Made by a program: the position numbers and the translations under genes. Under the pieces are notes generated by a model. That model saw nothing but the letters and a program-made list of their open reading frames with translations. It did no database searches and was not told where the DNA came from. From Thermoplasmata archaeon (GTDB lineage Archaea; Thermoplasmatota; E2; JACPAO01; JAHFTW01): 64,000 bases of DNA. The stretch covers positions 165,999-229,998 of the forward strand of contig JAHFTW010000003.1 in NCBI GenBank assembly GCA_023269235.1. Direction: 5' to 3'. Position 1 is the first letter of the stretch; every line of letters begins with the position of its first letter. Below are positions 24,934-37,426 of the stretch, in pieces.

Positions 24934-25559
24934 GCCTGCGCCTCGGCATCGCGGCCAGCGCGGAAGGCATCCTCGAACCCGTCGACCTGCTCGGCCGCGC
25001 AGCCCTCGCAAAGCGCCGTCTGGTCAAGCCGTACCGGCACCCGAGCCTCGACGCCCGCCTGCGCGCCGAGCGGACGCGCGACGAAGCGCGTCTCCTTCTC
25101 GCCGCCCGTCGTGCTGGCATCCCCGTCCCGATCCTGTACGACGCCGACCGCGGCGACGCGACCCTCGTGCTCGAGCGCATGGCCGGAGCGACGCTGCAGG
25201 AGCAGCTCGCCCACGACGCGGAGCCCGTCCGGACCGCGCGCATGGCTGCGTTCGGCGCAATCGCCGCGCGCCTCCACTCCGCGGGCCTCGTGCATGGCGA
25301 CCTGACCCTGCGCAACCTGCTCGTCCCGGAACCCGCCCGCGCCGACTCCCTCGTCCTCGTGGACTTCGGCCTCGGCGGCTTCACGCAGGAGTCCGAGCCG
25401 CGGGGCGTGGACCTGCACATCCTCGAAGAGGCGCTGGAGGCCGTGCGCCCCGACGCGGCCGTCCTCTTCGCCGCGTTCCTCACCGGCTACGCTTGGCCTG
25501 GGGCCGCCGCCGCGCTCAAGCGCCTCGACGAGATCCGCGAACGGGGGCGCTACCGATGA
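24930..25559 (+). CDS. bud32: KEOPS kinase Bud32 (RIO-type atypical protein kinase)
   Basis: A ~209 aa minimal kinase ('GDATLVLERMAG..L', 'LHSAGLVHGDLTLRNLLV', 'LVDFGLG'). Its ATG overlaps the kae1 stop (ATGA), so the two genes are separate and not fused. Confidence 0.8.
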   Translation: MSLRLGIAASAEGILEPVDLLGRAALAKRRLVKPYRHPSLDARLRAERTRDEARLLLAARRAGIPVPILYDADRGDATLVLERMAGATLQEQLAHDAEPVRTARMAAFGAIAARLHSAGLVHGDLTLRNLLVPEPARADSLVLVDFGLGGFTQESEPRGVDLHILEEALEAVRPDAAVLFAAFLTGYAWPGAAAALKRLDEIRERGRYR

Positions 25560-26143
25560 CAACGCCGTCGCCCCCGCTGACGTTCTTCACGACCAACAAG
25601 GGCAAGGTCGCCGAGCTCGCCTCGCAGCTCGCGCCCTTCGGCCTCACGGTGCGCCAGGACGCCCGCGGCTACCCCGAGGTCCAGGCGGACACGCTCGCCG
25701 AAGTCGCCGAGGCGGGCGCGGACTGGCTGCTCGCCAACGGCGCCACGCCCCCGTTCTTGCTCGAGGACTCCGGGCTCTTCGTGGCGGCGCTCAAAGGGTT
25801 CCCCGGGGTCTATTCGCGCCACACGCTCGACACCATCGGCCTGCCCGGGCTGCTCGCCCTTCTGCGCGACGCCCCCCCGGCGCGGCGCGAGGCCTGGTTC
25901 GAGACGGCGCTCCTGCTGGTCGAGGCCGACGGCACGCGCCGCCTCTTCACCGGCCGCTGCGATGGGCGCATCGCGGACACACCGTCGGGGACTGGCGGTT
26001 TCGGGTTCGACCCCCTGTTCATCCCCGCTGGCGCCACCCAGACGTTCGCCGCCATGCCCCCCGCCGCGAAGGCGGCCCTCAGCCACCGCGGGAAGGCGGT
26101 CGCGGCCTTCCTGGAGCACCGGAAGCGAACTGGAAAGCCCTAA
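25556..26143 (+). CDS. rdgB: Non-canonical purine NTP pyrophosphatase (Ham1/RdgB/ITPase)
   Basis: 'FFTTNKGKVAEL...LLEDSGLFVAAL.GFPGVYS...TGGFGFDPLF' is the Maf/Ham1 pattern. The ATG overlaps the bud32 stop. Confidence 0.8.
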   Translation: MTTPSPPLTFFTTNKGKVAELASQLAPFGLTVRQDARGYPEVQADTLAEVAEAGADWLLANGATPPFLLEDSGLFVAALKGFPGVYSRHTLDTIGLPGLLALLRDAPPARREAWFETALLLVEADGTRRLFTGRCDGRIADTPSGTGGFGFDPLFIPAGATQTFAAMPPAAKAALSHRGKAVAAFLEHRKRTGKP

Positions 26144-26171
26144 AGCCATCCGCGCAGGTGGCCAAGACGAC

Positions 26172-27341
26172 ATGGCCTCTGGACGTCGCATCGCCGGCAC
26201 CATCCTGATCATCCTCGCGGTGCTCCTCACCGTCGGCTTCGGCGCCCTCGTGTACGACCAGACCGGCGGCTCGAACGTGCTCGGCCTGGACGCCGACCTC
26301 GCGGGCTACATCATGGCTGGCGTCCTGGGCGCAATCGTCGTCGTCCTCTTCCTGCTCATCGTCGTCCACCACCGCGCCCGTCGGGCCCGTCGCATCGCCG
26401 CCCAGACCGTCGCCGCCGAGCCCCTGCCCGAGGCCGAGGTGGAGTTCACCGAGGTCGCGCCCAGCACCCCGCTCGCCAAGGCGGCCGCCTCGGAGCCCGA
26501 CGCGGGCGAGCCGAGCGGCCCCGAGGTCGTCGTGTACGACCTGCCGCAGGTGCAAGCCGCCTACCGTTCCTTCGAGCGCGCGGACGGCGCGGCCACCTTC
26601 ACCTACCCGCGCACCGTCGCTTCCGCGGTCTACACCAACGACCACCTCGATGTCGGCAACCAGCACGTCAAGGTCCGCACCCTGCTCGCCGGCCCAGCCG
26701 ACGTCGGGCCCATCCCGGACGACCAGGCGGCCCCGGTGCCGCTCTCCCTCGGCCCCGACGACGTGCCCGAACCCTACCGCTCGAGGCTGTTCCGCGCTCC
26801 GAAGGCCTCCAAGATCTCCCCGACGGGCAAGGCCGCCGACGGCGACGCCTTCGTGGCCAAGCTCGCGGAGGCCCGCACCGCCGCCAAGCCCAAGCCCCGC
26901 GCCGGCCCCTCCTACTACGGCTACTCCGGCGACGTCCACCCGGTCGAGGACATCGAAGGCATCGGCGCCATCTACGGCGACAAGCTGCGCAAGGCCGGCG
27001 TGTACACGACCGACCGCCTCTGCTACGAGAAGCCGCAAACACTCGCCGACAAGGTGGGCGTCCCCCGCAAGACCGCCGAGACCTGGCAGCACATGGCCGA
27101 GCTCGTCAAGATCAAGGGCGTCGGCCCCCAGTACGCCGAGGCCATGGCGCGCGCTGGCATCCGCGGCATCGCCGACCTCAAGCGCCGCAGCGCGGCCGGC
27201 ATCGCCGACCAGGTCACCGGCTACCTCGACTCCCTGAACGCCACCGTCGTCGGCACCGCCGTCACGGAGGCCCGCGTCGCCAACTGGCAGAAGGCCGCGG
27301 CGCGCATGAAGCGCGTCCGTCTCAAGGTCCCCGAGCAATAG
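26172..27341 (+). CDS. Membrane-anchored protein with C-terminal DUF4332-like tandem helix-hairpin-helix
   Basis: Two N-terminal TM helices are followed by an A/P-rich linker and then 'VEDIEGIGAIYGDKLRKAGVYTTDRL...IKGVGPQYAEAMARAGIRGIADL'. Confidence 0.65.
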   Translation: MASGRRIAGTILIILAVLLTVGFGALVYDQTGGSNVLGLDADLAGYIMAGVLGAIVVVLFLLIVVHHRARRARRIAAQTVAAEPLPEAEVEFTEVAPSTPLAKAAASEPDAGEPSGPEVVVYDLPQVQAAYRSFERADGAATFTYPRTVASAVYTNDHLDVGNQHVKVRTLLAGPADVGPIPDDQAAPVPLSLGPDDVPEPYRSRLFRAPKASKISPTGKAADGDAFVAKLAEARTAAKPKPRAGPSYYGYSGDVHPVEDIEGIGAIYGDKLRKAGVYTTDRLCYEKPQTLADKVGVPRKTAETWQHMAELVKIKGVGPQYAEAMARAGIRGIADLKRRSAAGIADQVTGYLDSLNATVVGTAVTEARVANWQKAAARMKRVRLKVPEQ

Positions 27342-28434
27342 GCGGAAGCCCAACGCGGCGCACGGGTGCGGCCGGTTGCGGCGCCCGTCGCGGCGGCACG
27401 GTCGCCGGCATCGCCATGGGCAGGATGGGCAGCTCGCCGAGCGTGAGCTGGCGCGTCGGCTCCGGCAACGGCGCCGTCACCCACTCGAAGGGCGGGTTGA
27501 AGAACGGCCGGCTCAGGACGAGGCCGAGCTTTCGGAAGGCGGTGTCCAGCTCGGCACGCCAGGCTGCCTGCCGGTCGTTGGAGGCGAAGAACTTCGTGAG
27601 GTCCTCCCACGGTCCGCCGCGCAGGCGTTCCCAGAGTGGCGCGAGGACGGTCTGCTTGCGGTCGAGCCCCTTCGAGTTGACCCACTGCGCTCCGGCGTCC
27701 AGGAAAGTGCGCGCCACCGCGTCGGCGTCGTGCGTCGTCGGCGGGCAGGCGGGCGTGTAGTTGGCGAACGTGCTGATGCCCGAGTCGGAGAGCTTGCGAA
27801 GGGCGCGTAGGCGGGCGGGGATCGCGGGCGCGGCGGGCTCGAGGACGCGGCGCACTTGGTCGTCGAGCGTCGGGACGCTCAGGCCCACGCGGATCTGGCT
27901 GAACTGCGTGAAGAGGTCCAAGTCCCGAAGCACGAGGGGGCTGCGGGTGAGGACCTCGACGGGCCAGTCGCGGCGGGCGAGGATCTCTAGGCACTTGCGC
28001 GTGATGCGGTGCTCGGCCTCCGCGGGCTGGTACGGGTCGGTCGCCGTGGAGAGGTAGGTCGTGTGCTTGAGGCCGGCCTTCTCCGCCTTCGCGACGGCGC
28101 GGGCAAGGCGCGTCGGCAGGTCGCGTTTCACCACGACGTAGCTGCCCCAGCGTTTGCGTTCCGCATGGATGGTGTCGGGGACGTAGCAGTAGGCGCAGGC
28201 GTGCAGGCAGCCCGCGTACGGGTTCAGCGACCACGCCTCCTTTGTGATGTGGCCGCCCATCGTGAAGTCGGTGAGGCCGCCGGCGCCGTCGGACTCGAGC
28301 ACCTTGCAGAGGCCGTACGAATCGCGCCCCAGGCCGTCAGCGCCCCTCTGGGCGTCGTCGAGGGACAGCTGGGACAGGTCGTGCGCCCGGCGGAGCATCG
28401 GGTGGACCGTGTCGTTGCGGTAGTCCATCGGCAT
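27322..28434 (-). CDS. Radical SAM enzyme, spore-photoproduct-lyase-like (COG1533 / SplB 'DNA repair photolyase' family)
   Basis: 'NPYAGCLHACAYCYVPD' is the atypical CxxxCxxC cluster of the SPL/COG1533 family; the 370 aa length fits. Confidence 0.75.
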   Translation of the reverse strand: MPMDYRNDTVHPMLRRAHDLSQLSLDDAQRGADGLGRDSYGLCKVLESDGAGGLTDFTMGGHITKEAWSLNPYAGCLHACAYCYVPDTIHAERKRWGSYVVVKRDLPTRLARAVAKAEKAGLKHTTYLSTATDPYQPAEAEHRITRKCLEILARRDWPVEVLTRSPLVLRDLDLFTQFSQIRVGLSVPTLDDQVRRVLEPAAPAIPARLRALRKLSDSGISTFANYTPACPPTTHDADAVARTFLDAGAQWVNSKGLDRKQTVLAPLWERLRGGPWEDLTKFFASNDRQAAWRAELDTAFRKLGLVLSRPFFNPPFEWVTAPLPEPTRQLTLGELPILPMAMPATVPPRRAPQPAAPVRRVGLPPIARGP

Positions 28435-28544: not shown

Positions 28545-29225
28545 GTGGCCGGCGTCATCGGTCTGCGGGGCCCCGACATCGAGAAACGCGATGCCCTTCG
28601 CGGGTACCAGGTCGTGTTCAAGGACGCGGACCGCCCCATCATCCGGCCTCACACGGGTCTGCCGGTTCTCTTCGTCGACGACGGCAAGGCGAAGGTCGAC
28701 CGTCACGTGTTCGGGTTCAGCCGCCGCTTCAGCAGCTTCAACGCCCGCGACGACAAACTGGAGGAAGGCAAACTCTGGATGGGCATGTTCGGCAAGGCGG
28801 GCCACCACGGCGTCGCTCCCGTGTCCTACATCCTGGAATGGTCGGAGTTCTCGGGTGAGAAACTGCCGTACCGCATCGAGCGCGCCGACGGCGCCGCCAT
28901 GTGCGTCCCCTCCCTCGTCGGCCGTTACTGGGAGGCCAAGGACACGCGTGCGGTGGCGCTCGTCACGATCACGCCCAACCCGTTCGTCGCCCGCTTCCAC
29001 GACCGCATGATCGGTCAGCTCGACGACCAGCACGTCGACGTCTGGCTCCACCCCGAAGACCACACTAAGGCCGAGCTTCGCGCCTGCCTCAAGGCGCCGT
29101 CGAACGATGACCTTGTCGCCATCCCGATCCAGGCCGACGTCGGCTCCGCCAAGTTCAGCGACACGTCCGCCCTCGAGGCCACCGGCAAGCCCCTCACGTG
29201 GAAGGACATCAAGGGGGCAAGTTGA
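28545..29225 (+). CDS. SRAP (SOS-response-associated peptidase, DUF159/YedK/HMCES) homolog, paralog 1, with Cys2 replaced by Ala
   Basis: 'FNARDDKLEEGKLW', 'ALVTITPNP' and 'FHDRMIGQL...VWLHPED' match the YedK 'INARVETA', 'LIVTAAA' and 'IHDRRPLVL' motifs. The start was taken at in-frame GTG 28545 by alignment with paralog 2 ('MAGVIGL' against 'MAGLIGL'). No Cys occurs near the N-terminus. Confidence 0.6.
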   Translation: MAGVIGLRGPDIEKRDALRGYQVVFKDADRPIIRPHTGLPVLFVDDGKAKVDRHVFGFSRRFSSFNARDDKLEEGKLWMGMFGKAGHHGVAPVSYILEWSEFSGEKLPYRIERADGAAMCVPSLVGRYWEAKDTRAVALVTITPNPFVARFHDRMIGQLDDQHVDVWLHPEDHTKAELRACLKAPSNDDLVAIPIQADVGSAKFSDTSALEATGKPLTWKDIKGAS

Positions 29226-29884
29226 TGGCCGGCTTGATCGGGCTCAAGAGCTCCGACATCGAGATCCAGGACGCGCTCCAGGTGACCAAGTTCGACTACG
29301 AAGGCAACTGGATTCCGCACCCCGTCGTCCGCCTCACCACGACGCTCCCCGTCGCCATCAACCGGGATGGCGAGCGCGTCGCGGTCCGCGCCCGCTGGGG
29401 CTTCCCCATCGGCGGAGGCCGCCCCGTCGGCAACTCGCGCGACGACAAGCTCGAAGTGAGCCCGATGTGGAAGAGCATGCTCGCGAAGAGCCCCTGCCTG
29501 GTCGCGGCGACTGGGGTCTATGAGCAGGCCGTCGTGGATGGCGAGAAACGGAATCTCTGGTTCCGCCGGCGCGATGGCAAGCCCATCGTCATGCCCGGCT
29601 TCGCGGCCCCGCGCACCTTCGACGGCGAGGCGCGGCTTTGCTGCAGCATCATCACGACGGAGCCGAACAAGTACTTCGGACGCTTTCACCCCCGGCAGGT
29701 CTGCGTCGTCAACCGCAAGGAGGCCGATGCCTGGATGGGCGCCACCACGCCGAAGGAGGCATTGGCCGTCCTGCACGCCCCGGCGGAGACGGAATGGGAA
29801 GCGGTCCCCGTCGATGGACGCATCTTCAAACCAGGACGCGTCGAGATGGAGCACCTCGTCCAGCTCGGACCCCCGATTCCGTAG
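29225..29884 (+). CDS. SRAP (DUF159/YedK) homolog, paralog 2, N-terminus 'MAGL' instead of 'MCGR'
   Basis: 'MAGLIGLKSSDIEIQDA...NSRDDKLEVSPMWKSM...FHPRQVCVV'. The ATG overlaps the paralog 1 stop (TGATG). The 3' end overlaps the convergent polB-like gene by about 59 nt. Confidence 0.65.
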   Translation: MAGLIGLKSSDIEIQDALQVTKFDYEGNWIPHPVVRLTTTLPVAINRDGERVAVRARWGFPIGGGRPVGNSRDDKLEVSPMWKSMLAKSPCLVAATGVYEQAVVDGEKRNLWFRRRDGKPIVMPGFAAPRTFDGEARLCCSIITTEPNKYFGRFHPRQVCVVNRKEADAWMGATTPKEALAVLHAPAETEWEAVPVDGRIFKPGRVEMEHLVQLGPPIP

Positions 29885-32198
29885 CCTGTTCGGGCCGTCT
29901 CGTGCGACCCATGAGCCACGCGACCAGGCCCTCCTCGGTGTATCCAAGAGGCGAGAACAGCGTCTCCGTCATGCGCGCGACGAGGCGGATGTAGGCGTCC
30001 ACGTCGTAGGTCTCCTGGGGCGACCCGAACCACGGCGAGCCTTGGCCCAGAAGCTCGACGGGGGTGACGCGGCCACGCCACGGGCCTTCGGTGCGGGTGA
30101 TGACGTACTTCACGTACTCCCCGGGGCGCCGCTCGGTGCCCGCGTTGCGCAGCGCCCACAGCGCGGCCTTGGTGCCCGTGTTGGAGGTGTACTCCTCGAC
30201 GGCCATGCGTGCTTGCACCATGAGGCCCAGGTCCTCGGCGCGCACTTCGCGGCGGCGCAGACGGTCGACGGCGCGCTTGGCGACCCGTAGCGCCAGCGGC
30301 ACCCGGGTTCGGAAGCCGGCCGCATCGTCGGCCTCCTGCAGGATGTCGAGCATGCCCTGCTGCACGTCGTAGAGGAACGGCGGCGTGTTGTGGCGCTGCA
30401 CCTCGATGCCGCGCACCTTGAGCTTGCCGTCCTCGAACTTGCCATAGTACCGGTTTGGGACGCCCACCTCGCTCTCCGTCGAGTGCGTCTTGGAGGGCAA
30501 GAGGACGAGCCACTTGTAGACGCCCTCGACGTCCATCGGGACGCCGACCTCCTTGGTGATTTTGCGGGCAATGGCGGCTGCGTCGTCGCGCGTCACGCCG
30601 GGTTTGTGCAGGAAGGCGCAATCGGTGAGCGCGTGGACCATCGTGTACCCCTCGGCCTGGGCGACTTCGCGGGCACGCGTCATGCCGGCGCGGCCATAGC
30701 ATTGGATGCTCTGGTGGACCTCGGCGCACCCGAAGCGCGCGTTGCGGTAACGGAAGTATCCGAAGCAGACGACGCCGAGCGCCTTGTGCTCCGACTTGAT
30801 GGCCTTGGCCTTCGCGCGCCGGTCCGCGTCGAGGTCGGCGCGCTTGAGGACGGCCTTCGCCCAGCGTCGGTGCGACCAGAGACGACGCAGGATCTCTGCC
30901 TGGTGGCCGTAGTGTTTCGTGCAGGTGTGGTAGCCGAGCTCGGGGATGACGGGCCCGTCGGGGCAGCAGCTGCAATTCATGGAGTCGCTGCTAAGGTTGT
31001 GCGCCACGACAAGGCTCGGGTAGTAGCCGGAGAAATCGCAGGCGGCCACGTCGTCGTAGAGGCCGGGCTCGGGGACCATGATCTGGCCGCCGCGGTCCAC
31101 GGCGCACAAGGTGGCGGCGGTCTTCCAGTCCTCCGTGAGGTTGCGCTTCCACGGCAGGGCCACGCCCCAGTCCGTGGCGAGGTCGACCTGCATCTGTTGC
31201 AGTGCGAAGCCCGCGCCGTTGCGGTTCACGTCCTGGGCGCGCCGGTTGGCGACGCGGGCAAGGTAGAGGATGCCGTGGAGGTCCTTGCGGTCGTCCTCGG
31301 AGTCGAGCGTCTTCTTCGCGAGGTCGATGTGCCAACGGCCGCGCAGATAGTAGGCGTGCGTCTTGTAGAGCCAGCGCCCGTAGGTGTGGATGCTCTTGCC
31401 CGCCTGGTCCGGCCGGTCCGGGGCCGGGTCGGGGGCGCGCCCGAGCCAGACTCCCTCGCGCAGTCCGAGCGCCTGGATGCGCGTCAGCAGGAACGGGATG
31501 TCGAAGCGATCGCCGTGCCGCGTGACCAGGACATCGGGGTCGTTCTGGCGGAGGAACCGGTCCAAGCCCAGGAGGGTGGCGCGTTCGGCGTCGGGGTCGC
31601 CGGGTTTAGGGCAGACGAGTTCTTGGTCGCCGAGCGTGATGGATTCCAAGGGGTCCGTGAAGGCGGGCGCGTGGCCGACTTGCCGGGCATGGACTTCCAG
31701 GCGCACGACGCGAAGGTCGGGGTCGGGATAATCGACGGTCCAGCGATCGTCCTCGGGATGCGGCTTCAGCTCCGGCCCGTCGGGGCCGACCACAAGGCGG
31801 CACATGCTCCACAAGCCCTGTTCGTGCATCCAACGGCACTCTTGGCTATGATCCACGTCGAAGAAGAGGAAGCCCTTCGTGTGCGTGCGGCGTCGCAGGT
31901 CGGTGGCGATGCTCCAGGTGTCCTGGAAGCGCTTGGGCTTGACCCGCAGAACCTCCTGGGCCGGGCCGCGCAACCAGAGGCTCGCCGTGTCGCGCCACAC
32001 CGCCTCGACGCGCTTGTCCTCCGCGAGGAGCCGTTGGGCGGCCTCCAGCGGCTCTTGGTCGCTGGCGACGCAGAAGCTAGGCTGGTACGGGACGTAGCGC
32101 TTCGTGGTCTGCAAGCCGTGTTTGACCCAGACGACCAAGCAGGAGCGGGTCGGGTGGGTGGACACGTCGAGCAACCAGGCCTGCGTTGGCGAGGGCAT
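29826..32198 (-). CDS. Family B DNA polymerase paralog with degenerate polymerase motifs (likely inactivated or divergent PolB)
   Basis: It aligns along its length with archaeal PolB (reference residues recalled from memory of Pfu Pol). The N-terminal domain ('AWLLDVSTH..CLVVWVK..YQPSFCVA') and motif A ('DFSGYYPSLVVAHNLSSDS') are clear. Motif B reads 'HKALGVVCFGY' where KxxxNSxYG is expected (the NS positions are VV). Motif C reads 'VHALTDCAF' where YGDTDS/YADTDG is expected (first Asp is Leu). The KKRY position reads 'SKTHS'. The Exo I position reads 'FFDVDHSQE' for 'FDIET'. The start was taken at ATG 32198 ('MPSPTQAWLLDV'); the upstream S/T/P-rich extension was rejected. Confidence 0.7.
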   Translation of the reverse strand: MPSPTQAWLLDVSTHPTRSCLVVWVKHGLQTTKRYVPYQPSFCVASDQEPLEAAQRLLAEDKRVEAVWRDTASLWLRGPAQEVLRVKPKRFQDTWSIATDLRRRTHTKGFLFFDVDHSQECRWMHEQGLWSMCRLVVGPDGPELKPHPEDDRWTVDYPDPDLRVVRLEVHARQVGHAPAFTDPLESITLGDQELVCPKPGDPDAERATLLGLDRFLRQNDPDVLVTRHGDRFDIPFLLTRIQALGLREGVWLGRAPDPAPDRPDQAGKSIHTYGRWLYKTHAYYLRGRWHIDLAKKTLDSEDDRKDLHGILYLARVANRRAQDVNRNGAGFALQQMQVDLATDWGVALPWKRNLTEDWKTAATLCAVDRGGQIMVPEPGLYDDVAACDFSGYYPSLVVAHNLSSDSMNCSCCPDGPVIPELGYHTCTKHYGHQAEILRRLWSHRRWAKAVLKRADLDADRRAKAKAIKSEHKALGVVCFGYFRYRNARFGCAEVHQSIQCYGRAGMTRAREVAQAEGYTMVHALTDCAFLHKPGVTRDDAAAIARKITKEVGVPMDVEGVYKWLVLLPSKTHSTESEVGVPNRYYGKFEDGKLKVRGIEVQRHNTPPFLYDVQQGMLDILQEADDAAGFRTRVPLALRVAKRAVDRLRRREVRAEDLGLMVQARMAVEEYTSNTGTKAALWALRNAGTERRPGEYVKYVITRTEGPWRGRVTPVELLGQGSPWFGSPQETYDVDAYIRLVARMTETLFSPLGYTEEGLVAWLMGRTRRPEQATESGVRAGRGAPSRRVLV

Positions 32199-32469
32199 CG
32201 AGGGCCTCCTGGAGGTCTTTCTTGAGCAGGTCCAGCTCCCGGCCTTGGTCGTCCATGAGGCGCATGCCTTCGAGGAGCATGGCGAGCATGACGGGCCGTT
32301 CGAAGTCCATGTGGGGGCGGCGGTTGATGGCGTTGGAGTGGCGGCGGGCGCGGCAGACGAGCTCGTCGAACCACGCCTGCTCCCGGGGTTGGAGTTCGCT
32401 GCGGAACTGCGCGTAGCGTTGCGTGAACGTGTCAAGGGCAATGGTGGTGGTGGGAGTGCTTTGGCCCAT
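32077..32469 (-). CDS. Hypothetical small protein (130 aa) immediately upstream of the polB-like gene
   Basis: Protein-like composition ('FDELVCRARRHSN...ELDLLKKDLQEALDALANAGL'), while the antisense frame is G/A/V-rich junk. The 3' end overlaps the proposed polB-like start by 122 nt, so either its end or the polB start is uncertain. Confidence 0.4.
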   Translation of the reverse strand: MGQSTPTTTIALDTFTQRYAQFRSELQPREQAWFDELVCRARRHSNAINRRPHMDFERPVMLAMLLEGMRLMDDQGRELDLLKKDLQEALDALANAGLVARRVHPPDPLLLGRLGQTRLADHEALRPVPA

Positions 32470-32490: not shown

Positions 32491-33195
32491 CTAGGCGGCG
32501 AGGGGTTTTGGGAGTCTGCGTGGGGGCAGTGAAACCACGAGCTCCGGCTCCTCCGGGACGAAGTCGAGCAGGGTCACGCGGCGGCGCAGGCTGGGGTCGA
32601 GGATGACGCCGGCGTCACTCGTCGCCCTCCACCGGTCCGCGACCGGCTGCGCGACCCAGCGGGCGTCCACGCCGTCGTGCGTCGCCTGCGCGAGAGCGGG
32701 GTGGCTCTTCCACCACCGTGGCATGTCCACGCCGAGCAGGATGGGAACGTGGAAGCGGCGTGCCGTCTTGGCGAGGTGGGCGAGGCTGAAGCGCGTGTAG
32801 TCCTCCTGCTCCCAGTCCTGGATCTCCTCGTGGCTCCACAACCGGTCGAAAGGATTGACGACGACGAGACCCGTTTCGCCCTCGCCCAGCTTGAGGTCCA
32901 GGTGGCGCGTGAGGACGGTGTCCCATTGGAACGGCGTCATGCAACGCTTGACGAGGAGCCGGTCGGCGCCATCGTCGGCGGCGTGGCCCCGCGTCATTTG
33001 CAACTCGGCCTGGTCGTAGGGGTTGAAGCTGTGGTCGCCGTCGCACCACAGGACATTTCCGGGCCGTTCACGCAGCGCGGTGTACGCGATCTCTTGGAAG
33101 AACTGCGCGAGGTGGCGGCCCTTCGCGCTCACCAGGGTGAGGCGGTCGGGCTCCAGGAACGTCGACCACACAACGTCCCGTGGTCGGCGGAGCAT
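32491..33195 (-). CDS. Hypothetical protein (234 aa), first gene of the polB-like cluster
   Basis: 'MLRRPRDVVWSTFLEPDRLTLVSAKGRHL...LWCDGDHSFNPYDQ...LVVVNPFDRLWSHEE...' has ordinary composition, strong GC3 bias and no recognisable motif. Its ATG at 33195 lies 21 nt upstream of the next ORF. Confidence 0.55.
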   Translation of the reverse strand: MLRRPRDVVWSTFLEPDRLTLVSAKGRHLAQFFQEIAYTALRERPGNVLWCDGDHSFNPYDQAELQMTRGHAADDGADRLLVKRCMTPFQWDTVLTRHLDLKLGEGETGLVVVNPFDRLWSHEEIQDWEQEDYTRFSLAHLAKTARRFHVPILLGVDMPRWWKSHPALAQATHDGVDARWVAQPVADRWRATSDAGVILDPSLRRRVTLLDFVPEEPELVVSLPPRRLPKPLAA

Positions 33196-36019: not shown

Positions 36020-37426
36020 ATGGACGCCCCGCCCGCGCGGGGAGTCGCGTCTCCCGGCGACGTCTCGCGTCTCGTGCTGAGCGCGCGCCAGGCCGCGGCC
36101 GCCATCCGCGCGCGGCCGCCCGGCACGCGCTGGCTTCTCGATTGCGACAACGACGCCGACGGCCTGTGCGCCGCCGCCGTCACCGCGCTTGCCCTGCTGC
36201 GCGCCGGCCACCGGTTCACCATCCGCCCGAGCCGGGACAAGCAGGAGGCGCACTACCGCGCCCTGCTGGCCGAGCCGGTGGATGGCTTCCTCACGCTCGA
36301 CAAGGGCACGAGCCACGCGGCCCAGCTTGCCGCCGACCCGCAGCGCAAGGGCCGCCCCGTCGTCGTCGTGGACCACCACAATGTCCCCGCCGCGGCGCAT
36401 GACGGCGTCGTGATGCTCAACCCGCGCACGGTGGGCCTCGACGGCTCCCGCGACGCTTCCGGCGCCACCACGGCGCTCGCGCTCGCCCTTGAGCTCGCTG
36501 GCCCCACGGCCTGGACCTGGGCCCCCATCGCCCTCTCCGGCGCCGTCGGCGACTGGCAGCACATGGGTGGCTGGCAGGGCTGGAACCTCGCCGTCGTCCA
36601 AGAGGCTACGAAGCAAGGCCACCTGCGCATGGTCGCGATGCCGCGCTTCATCGGCGTCAGCCTCGCGGAGGCCCTCAGCCACGCCCGCCCCGCCATCCCC
36701 GGGCTCCAAGGCGACCCCCAGGCGTCTGCCCAGTTTCTCGCTTCGATTCAAGTGGATGCCGACGCGGAGGTCGAGGAGCTGGACGTGGAGGCGCGCACCC
36801 GGCTCGTCTCGGCGGTCGTCGCGCGCCACCTCGCGCACGGCGCGTCGGGCGCCGGGCTCGACCGCCTCGTCGGCCCGCTCGAATGGAACGTGCGCCTGGA
36901 CGCCTCGCTGCGGCAGGTCTTCCGCCTCGTGGACGCCTGCGGCCGCGAGGGCAACCCGCAGGCGGCGCTCGCGTGGCTCATGGGCGACGCGGCCGCGAAG
37001 GCCGAGGTCACGGCCTGTTTCCAGAGCTACCGGCAGGCCCTGTCGGCCGGCGTGCGCGCGCTCCGCGACGGCGGCGTGGCCAAGCGGCAGGCCCTCCAGG
37101 TCGCCTGGACCGAGCGCGCCGACTACACGGGCATGGTGGCGGGCATCGGCATGACGCATATCGTCGCCGACCGGTCCCGCCCGCTCGCCGTGCTCGCGCC
37201 CCGGCCGGACGGGAAGGTCCAGGCTTCGACGCGCGGCACGCACGAGCAGGTCGCCGCCGGCCTCGACCTGGGCGCCGCCTGCTCGGTCGCCGCCCAGGCG
37301 GCTGGCTCCGAGGGCGGCGGCCACCCCGTCGCCGCGGGGGCCGTCATCGCGAAGGAGACGGTCGAGCCGTTCCTCGCGGCCCTGGACGCCGCGCTCATCG
37401 CGCAGAAGTTCCTCGGCGGTGCCTGA
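36020..37426 (+). CDS. recJ: DHH-family RecJ/GAN-like single-strand nuclease
   Basis: 'LLDCDNDADGLCAAA' gives the DHH motif I, and 'VVVDHHNVP' gives DHH. A DHHA1-like C-terminus follows. S15 adjacent to a RecJ-like gene is a conserved archaeal neighbourhood. Confidence 0.8.
   Translation: MDAPPARGVASPGDVSRLVLSARQAAAAIRARPPGTRWLLDCDNDADGLCAAAVTALALLRAGHRFTIRPSRDKQEAHYRALLAEPVDGFLTLDKGTSHAAQLAADPQRKGRPVVVVDHHNVPAAAHDGVVMLNPRTVGLDGSRDASGATTALALALELAGPTAWTWAPIALSGAVGDWQHMGGWQGWNLAVVQEATKQGHLRMVAMPRFIGVSLAEALSHARPAIPGLQGDPQASAQFLASIQVDADAEVEELDVEARTRLVSAVVARHLAHGASGAGLDRLVGPLEWNVRLDASLRQVFRLVDACGREGNPQAALAWLMGDAAAKAEVTACFQSYRQALSAGVRALRDGGVAKRQALQVAWTERADYTGMVAGIGMTHIVADRSRPLAVLAPRPDGKVQASTRGTHEQVAAGLDLGAACSVAAQAAGSEGGGHPVAAGAVIAKETVEPFLAALDAALIAQKFLGGA

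Follow-up and report, generated by a model that had tools for sequence, protein, structure and literature searches.

Can a family-B DNA polymerase work when conserved residues of its polymerase motifs have been replaced? The question is raised by the gene for a 790-amino acid (aa) protein in a 64,000-nucleotide stretch of DNA from a Thermoplasmata archaeon (contig JAHFTW010000003.1 of assembly GCA_023269235.1, positions 165,999 to 229,998), which we analyzed whole and refer to as the window. The window (GC content ~70%) comes from a metagenome-assembled genome (MAG) of the Thermoplasmatota, a label that relatives of the 790-aa protein also carry, and the identical protein is called in three public assemblies (ENA, Logan, and NCBI contigs). 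Our answer is that the gene very probably encodes the catalytic subunit of an archaeal DNA-damage-tolerance polymerase complex (the ‘PolB2 mutasome’) and is co-transcribed, in the canonical order, with the genes for its partners iRadA and PPB2.

Polymerase Motifs

The open reading frame (ORF) is intact, has a GC content at third codon positions (GC3) of 0.87, and is a genuine full-length family-B polymerase homolog. It matches the Pfam domains DNA_pol_B (1.8e-18) and DNA_pol_B_exo1 (3.9e-06), and its nearest solved structures in the PDB are the canonical euryarchaeal PolB enzymes of P. abyssi, KOD, Tgo, and Pfu. The match to P. abyssi/KOD PolB has an E value of ~4e-37 with the single sequence and 1.1e-78 with a family profile, which matches P. 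abyssi PolB over profile positions 76–258 and 309–755. None of the PDB matches listed for the protein is named PolB2 or Dpo2. We mapped the motifs by pairwise and profile alignment to P. abyssi/KOD PolB, which agreed with each other on the polymerase motifs, and read conservation from 84 full-length homologs and invariance from an alignment reaching down to 33% identity. The features are:

29826..32198 (-): PolB2 (Dpo2-type family-B DNA polymerase), 790 aa, identified from Pfam, PDB, NCBIfam, and a catalogued homolog
31845..31865 (-): ‘FFDVDHS’, residues 112–118, N-terminal-domain motif equivalent to P. abyssi ‘FEYDIPF’
31686..31703 (-): ‘RLEVHA’, residues 166–171, likeliest position of Exo I, lacking DxE
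31500..31517 (-): Exo II ‘HGDRFD’, residues 228–233
31011..31037 (-): motif A ‘DFSGYYPSL’, residues 388–396, aligned to ‘DFRSLYPSI’
30756..30785 (-): motif B ‘KALGVVCFGY’, residues 472–481, aligned to ‘KILANSYYGY’
30612..30638 (-): motif C ‘VHALTDCAF’, residues 521–529, aligned to ‘LYIDTDGLY’
30480..30494 (-): ‘SKTHS’, residues 569–573, inside an 11-residue PolB2-specific insertion before KxY that is a gap in P. abyssi PolB
30441..30458 (-): ‘PNRYYG’, residues 581–586, equivalent of the KxY motif, aligned to P. abyssi ‘TKKKYA’ by profile alignment

Motif A is intact, with an invariant metal ligand (D388) and an invariant Y393 that corresponds to the Tyr of the canonical PolB ‘SLYPS’. An earlier note on this DNA had described the protein as PolB-like from end to end and had named this motif A; the Pfam and PDB matches and the alignments agree with both statements. 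Motif B retains K472, which is invariant, and has Val-Val for Asn-Ser and Phe479 for Tyr. Motif C has His for Tyr and Leu for the first Asp and keeps the second Asp, D526, which is also invariant. The note had likewise reported the Val-Val pair and the Leu in place of the first carboxylate and had pointed out that a structure-guided alignment might shift the motifs so that the residues were in fact conserved. When the alignment was run against the solved structures, both substitutions survived, pairwise and with the profile. The loss of the primer-binding KKRY position, which the note had read as ‘SKTHS’, did not: P. abyssi ‘KKKY’ pairs with ‘NRYY’ (582–585), where the family shows no variation at R583 or Y584. 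KxY is therefore retained as R-x-Y, and the motif is essentially conserved.

The exonuclease region required a similar correction. The note had placed Exo I at ‘DVD’ and regarded it as degenerate. The residues named belong elsewhere, since ‘FFDVDH’ aligns to a motif of the N-terminal domain, and the degeneracy itself stands: no DxE is present at Exo I under any placement, that of the profile alignment included, the exact placement being uncertain. Exo I most likely lies at ‘RLEVHA’, a position derived from the spacing to Exo II and the strand pattern, as profile alignment is unreliable in that stretch. The ‘RLEVHA’ sequence varies across the family. The atypical residues of the polymerase motifs (VVCFGY, Hx[LM]TDC, and NRYYG) are, by contrast, strongly conserved among the 84 homologs; the degenerate positions are features under selection, not decay.

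Assignment to the PolB2 Family

A conserved clade of ‘inactivated’ archaeal PolB proteins was described on the basis of at least two replacements in YGDTD, with the distal Asp conserved and Exo I not clearly recognizable (Rogozin et al., 2008; PMC2527604). Makarova et al. (2014; PMC4104785) later named the clade PolB2 and linked it to the genes for arCOG07300 and inactivated RadA proteins. The 790-aa protein has the same features: family-B homology, replacement of the motif C Tyr and first Asp with the distal Asp kept, and no DxE at Exo I. Furthermore, it is 34% identical (E 9.6e-107) to a bacterial homolog (P0119, MBM4332619.1) catalogued as PolB2 in an operon of type ‘1a (iRadA-PPB2-PolB2)’ (Supplementary data file 1 of Timinskas et al., 2025; PMC11791011). 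The catalogue’s motif strings (‘ALKWLLVVCFGYLGYRNARFG...HALTDALWI’ and ‘HGIIDSLWV’) agree with the signatures in the window protein and in 80 loci that we fetched, and the catalogued PolB2 sequences show ‘LV[VT]CFGY...H[GA]x[TIV]D’, the LTD variant included. Indeed, the LV[VT]CFGY form of motif B is a PolB2 signature throughout the family. The exact motif strings of the clade studied here were not found in the searched portions of the supplements to that paper (PMC11791011).

Profile scores point to the same family. The best NCBIfam models, NF004418 (280 bits) and NF004416 (268 bits), are both named ‘type B DNA-directed DNA polymerase’, and canonical PolB models score at most 116 bits. A Halorussus plasmid polymerase with the same arrangement of three genes reaches 1053 bits with NF004418, and the profile of our clade scores 473 bits on the haloarchaeal polymerase versus 268 bits on the best canonical PolB in the PDB. 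We thus assign the 790-aa protein, from its sequence, to the already described PolB2 family as a new and somewhat divergent member. The note’s placement of it in the conserved ‘inactivated’ archaeal family was correct, and that family is the one described in 2008 (PMC2527604).

The iRadA and PPB2 Genes

The genes for iRadA and PPB2 lie directly upstream of PolB2 on the same strand. The earlier note had recognized an operon, as we did, and had taken the other two genes for unknowns; they are known partners of the polymerase (PMC4104785; PMC11791011). Their features are:

32491..33195 (-): iRadA, 234 aa, inactivated RadA/Rad51-like ATPase core
32557..32580 (-): ‘RVTLLDFV’ in the iRadA tail, residues 206–213, PIP-like (QxxLxxF) candidate PCNA-binding motif
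32077..32469 (-): PPB2 (arCOG07300/PF26485 DUF8156), 130 aa, between iRadA and PolB2
32443..32469 (-): PPB2 N-terminal arm ‘MGQSTPTTT’, residues 1–9, invariant in the clade

The 234-aa gene is iRadA. Direct Pfam and NCBIfam scans gave no match for it, and in the PDB a profile built from 37 homologs matched only RadA/Rad51 (best E 0.0046). The AlphaFold (AF2) model (pLDDT 90.4) had DMC1, RadA, and RAD51 ATPase cores as its top Foldseek matches in the PDB (E 6e-10 to 8e-9, probability 1.00, TM-scores 0.59–0.66). The protein lacks the N-terminal HhH/oligomerization domain, and the alignment covers only ATPase-core constructs of RadA. No GxxxxGK[ST] P-loop occurs anywhere in the sequence. By inspection, the expected Walker A strand-loop-helix reads ‘LVSAKGRHLAQ’, and the RadA Walker B ‘LLIVDS’ aligns to ‘LVVVNP’, with Asn for Asp at a position that varies across the family. 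The published description of iRadA as an inactivated RadA (arCOG07763, arCOG04294, and arCOG08101; PMC11791011) fits these properties. The ‘RVTLLDFV’ stretch of the tail has the family consensus RQVTLLDF, in which T209, L210, and D212 are at least 90% conserved, and the model has a short helix at 210–213; by analogy with the published complexes (PMC11791011), a PIP-like motif is plausible here. Many iRadA homologs end in a conserved ‘RTRIVH’ tail, which is missing from the window protein.

We examined the gene calls of two source contigs (ENA and Logan), and the PPB2 ORF is missing from both. More than 200 homologs of the ORF exist, and all of the 120 listed (58–81% identity) carry PF26485/DUF8156. 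Direct Pfam and NCBIfam scans of the ORF gave no match, PF26485 being seen only in precomputed annotations and apparently absent from the scan library. Its predicted model has three helices, the third of them long (57–95). The clade profile aligns from residue 1 to small ORFs with ‘MGRTVPT[FY]R’ starts upstream of PolB2 in at least 33 distant loci, and also to ‘MGRTNPTYR’ of Halorussus. Because this alignment to MGRT-type arms begins at the first residue, the 130-aa ORF can be identified by sequence as PPB2 with a derived arm. The published arm has a highly conserved MGRT, with Arg3 and Arg9 as proposed DNA contacts (PMC11791011); the arm in the window has Gln for Arg3, Ser for Thr4, and Thr for Arg9. 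An ‘AAGGTG’ lies in a 21-nt spacer directly before the PPB2 ATG. At its other end the gene runs 122 nt past the PolB2 start, in a different frame; most of the close clade has an overlap of ~110 nt with conserved PolB2 coding sequence, as against 1–20 nt in distant relatives. A loop of PolB2 with a D(K/R) motif (253-DK-254 in S. islandicus) contacts the PPB2 arm (PMC11791011). We looked at ‘DDRKD’ (301–305) as a candidate for this loop; it is conserved in the close clade and gapped in the haloarchaeal alignment.

Operon Conservation and Split PolB2 Genes

A scan of species-representative genomes recovered at least 558 related loci, 80 of which were kept. These carry Thermoplasmatota, Methanomassiliicoccales, Methanosarcinales, ANME-1, and similar labels, and the PolB2 protein is 60–76% identical to many species-level relatives. 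Where enough upstream DNA was available (65 loci), iRadA was present in 60, PPB2 in 58, and both in 55, and the order iRadA-PPB2-PolB2 was found in 54 of these loci.

Many relatives, among them L016, L018, L021, L024, and L025 of a sister sub-clade, carry PolB2 as two genes, with the break at residue 454/456, between motifs A and B. The halves are separated by 0.5–2.4 kb, both are 64–81% identical to the intact protein, and clusters of the N-terminal half (~455 aa) occur among P0071–P0114. By reading of the sequence, three of the five split loci (L018, L021, and L025) have a separate gene for a hemolysin-III-like membrane protein between the halves. In one further protein (P0116), the C-terminal half is fused to iRadA. 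The L025 locus also has an extra in-frame insertion of ~97 aa (L025:3981–4273) in the N-terminal region of PolB2, between the equivalents of residues 139 and 144 of the window protein, and the 999-aa P0030 reads through out-of-frame-looking sequence. An intein was considered for the split and enlarged relatives (P0030 and the ~455-aa N-terminal halves) and rejected, as no intein domain was found. Split PolB2 genes are not mentioned in the 2025 paper on PolB2 (PMC11791011).

Function of PolB2 and Alternative Explanations

The name ‘inactivated’ no longer describes the family. In S. islandicus, Dpo2 is the sole damage-inducible polymerase and alone accounts for targeted mutagenesis (PMC7390963). 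In purified form it is a robust, though distributive, polymerase with no detectable exonuclease, and it inserts poorly opposite lesions yet efficiently extends mismatched and lesion-paired termini (PMC8764526). Because the purified Sulfolobus enzyme has robust polymerase activity, the PolB2 family is not inactivated, and the statement in the earlier note that its function is unknown is out of date, Dpo2 being a translesion extender (PMC7390963; PMC8764526).

The window protein retains the residues for phosphoryl transfer and for primer and deoxynucleoside triphosphate contacts (D388, D526, K472, and R583-Y584-Y585). In B-family structures such as those of RB69 and KOD, the first Asp of motif C is not among the two principal metal ligands, and the Asn, Ser, and Tyr of motif B line the nascent-base-pair pocket. 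Since these motif B residues line the pocket, the Val-Val-Cys-Phe sequence plausibly loosens it in favor of mismatch extension. By extension from the Sulfolobus enzyme and general knowledge of the B family, PolB2 in this archaeon would be an active, distributive, and proofreading-free polymerase, whose altered pocket would allow extension of primer ends that are mismatched or paired with a lesion, once another polymerase has carried out the insertion. Published AlphaFold models give a PolB2:iRadA:PPB2 complex of 1:1:3, with a PIP motif often present in iRadA (PMC11791011). Following these models, iRadA would dock on a PolB2 loop as RadA subunits dock in a filament, one N-terminal arm of the PPB2 trimer would reach into the cleft between PolB2 and iRadA, close to the DNA, and the PIP-like motif of the iRadA tail would tether the complex to PCNA.

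The assignment of such a function has to be weighed against a catalytically dead structural paralog (the hypothesis of 2008, followed in the earlier note), which would have only a scaffolding or regulatory part in replication or repair, possibly together with iRadA and PPB2. A motif C without its Tyr and first Asp, a motif B without Asn-Ser, and a missing Exo I are what this hypothesis would lead one to expect, and the partner iRadA is itself an inactivated enzyme. However, the two aspartates that bind the catalytic metals in B-family enzymes (D388 and D526), K472, Y393, and R583-Y584 are invariant in relatives down to 33% identity, which is unexpected for a pure scaffold and would fit an active enzyme better. 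Furthermore, Sulfolobus PolB2 has the motif C ‘IID’, as do 10 of the fetched loci, and is nonetheless robust in vitro and required for damage-induced mutagenesis in vivo. A dead paralog is thus unlikely, even though the polymerase activity on record comes from Sulfolobus PolB2. Several other points weigh against a PolB2 translesion polymerase at this locus. The 790-aa protein falls under the curated cut-offs of both NF004418 (280 vs. 692 bits) and NF004416, and its closeness to PolB2 rather than to PolB1, PolB3, or Pol II was judged by score comparisons. The PPB2 arm has neither of the two arginines (3 and 9) proposed as DNA contacts. In addition, activity is established for Sulfolobus enzymes only.

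Two further explanations concern the place of the gene in the genome. No other polymerase gene was seen among the scanned large ORFs of the 64-kb window, as would be the case if the protein were the organism’s main or only family-B replicative polymerase with unusual motifs. The protein nevertheless has all of the PolB2 signatures, a PolB2-specific operon, and no proofreading motifs, and the PolB2 family is patchy in distribution and dispensable where tested (PMC4104785; PMC7390963); a replicative role is accordingly very improbable. PolB2 operons of haloarchaea are frequently found on megaplasmids (103 plasmid records), and the gene is split in two in some relatives, which could indicate that the polymerase belongs to a mobile element (casposon, pipolin, or plasmid) or that the gene is a pseudogene in decay. 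The ORF in the window is, however, intact, with its GC3 of 0.87 and 60–76% identity to many species-level relatives, and it lies among housekeeping genes (ribosomal protein S15, AspRS, Kae1/TsaD, and a RecJ-like nuclease). The Pfam matches of genes called within ~10 kb include no Cas1, integrase, or terminal-protein gene, and the GC content shows no island. We rejected both the mobile-element and the pseudogene explanations on this context and conservation, and either is scarcely credible. A catalytic subunit of the PolB2 mutasome remains by far the best account of the 790-aa protein.

SRAP Paralogs and Gene Neighborhood

On the opposite strand, two genes for SRAP proteins converge on PolB2:

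28545..29225 (+): SRAP paralog A, 226 aa, GTG start, N-terminus (M)AGVIGL, Pfam SRAP 1.8e-20
29225..29884 (+): SRAP paralog B, 219 aa, convergent with PolB2 with a 59-nt 3′ overlap, Pfam SRAP 1.2e-24

The Cys2 of SRAP proteins is the nucleophile for abasic-site crosslinking. Both paralogs have Ala at this position (position 2 of the hidden Markov model, HMM), and HMM position 3 is the Gly of M-A-G in paralog B. The rest of the pocket is recognizable: N70, the Glu of ‘VYEQ’, and the His of ‘FHPR’ align to N75, E105, and H160 of YedK. The paper that discovered SRAP in 2013 described the second-residue Cys as ‘absolutely conserved’ (PMC3765255). SRAP orthologs that adjoin PolB2 in at least 12 related genomes (L008–L027) also start with (M)AG[LV]IGL. 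Among the best 150 of 1.84 billion library representatives, 104 SRAP proteins begin with MC and 8 with MA[GV], and four of the seven best library matches are among the identified Ala2 forms. Of the 26 closest loci, 15 had a SRAP match in the DNA that was fetched, and the enrichment of SRAP near polB2 is already published (PMC11791011).

The presence of convergent SRAP genes suggests that abasic sites in single-stranded DNA (ssDNA) are one relevant lesion. The Ala2 proteins could recognize such sites without a covalent DNA-protein crosslink, or act via the N-terminal amine, and with the Asn/Glu/His pocket kept could then pass the abasic lesion to PolB2. Taken together, the Cys-less tandem SRAPs and the arginine-less PPB2 arm might mark a derived PolB2 mutasome, with a split form in the sister sub-clade, that provides a non-covalent and not previously described tolerance of abasic sites; we advance this tentatively and consider it rather doubtful.

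Other genes around the operon include the following:

25493..28434 and 36020..37426: XTP/dITP pyrophosphatase (Ham1), an HhH/DUF4332 protein, a PA0069-family radical SAM protein, and a RecJ-family nuclease

A DNA-damage theme runs through these neighbors of PolB2, and a HhH/DUF4332 protein also adjoins PolB2 in another locus (L003). No orc1/cdc6 gene was seen within ~10 kb.

Comparison with Known Systems

The closest parallel is the Dpo2 mutasome of S. islandicus and S. solfataricus (PMC7390963; PMC8764526; PMC11791011). The polymerases share a motif C without the first Asp and with the distal Asp kept, and neither has Exo I. They also share the three-gene set with an inactivated RadA and a small helical protein with a conserved N-terminal arm, as well as SRAP enrichment nearby. 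By contrast, the exonuclease domain of the crenarchaeal enzyme is far more decayed, whereas the window protein aligns end to end with canonical PolB, and motif C is ‘IID’ in S. islandicus and ‘LTD’ in the window. Published PPB2 proteins also differ: they are ~90 aa with an MGRT arm, as opposed to 130 aa with the arm MGQS...T9 and the 122-nt overlap with PolB2. The haloarchaeal PolB2 (NF004418) of a Halorussus vallis plasmid (NZ_CP100004.1) has the same gene order (a 232-aa iRadA, a 96-aa PPB2, and the polymerase), and all three proteins are recognized by the profiles of our clade. The polymerase is, however, only ~27% identical to the window protein, with ‘IVD’ as motif C and ‘TKYF’ as KxY, and the PPB2 arm is the canonical MGRTNPTYR.

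Canonical euryarchaeal PolB3 enzymes (Pfu, KOD, Tgo, and P. abyssi; PDB 4flt and 5vu5) share the order of N-terminal, exonuclease, palm, fingers, and thumb domains. Unlike the window protein, they have the DxE of Exo I, the Asn-Ser of motif B, Y-x-DTD, and KKKY; they proofread and lack iRadA and PPB2 partners. The logic of a damage-tolerance polymerase combined with a RecA-family protein and a small accessory protein is also that of E. coli Pol V (UmuD′2C-RecA) and bacterial ImuA-ImuB-DnaE2, an analogy already drawn in the literature (PMC11791011). Those polymerases belong to unrelated families (Y and C), and the RecA of Pol V is an active recombinase subunit donated from a filament, whereas iRadA is a dedicated inactivated paralog. 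Eukaryotic Pol zeta (Rev3) is, like PolB2, a B-family polymerase with an inactivated exonuclease domain (PMC2527604). Its accessory subunits (Rev7 and Pol31/Pol32) are different, its motif C has kept the canonical aspartates, and it has no specific relationship to PolB2. Pol zeta specializes in extension from mismatched and lesion-paired termini.

Implications for the PolB2 Family

The finding is real but largely explained, as the PolB2 operon, its partners, and its translesion role are already published. Its value is mainly corrective. The PolB2 family should not be called inactive or of unknown function, and in residue mapping KxY should be placed at NRYY and Exo I should not be placed at DVD. 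In addition, the PPB2 gene was overlooked in the gene calls of the two examined contigs of this MAG. The side observations are more novel than the polymerase itself. SRAP paralogs without Cys2 that are genetically tied to a translesion polymerase may be of specialist interest, and the naturally split PolB2 genes could be informative about where the domains end and how the complex assembles. All of the biochemistry so far comes from Sulfolobus, and a euryarchaeal PolB2 with an intact-looking exonuclease-domain scaffold would be a useful second model for the family.

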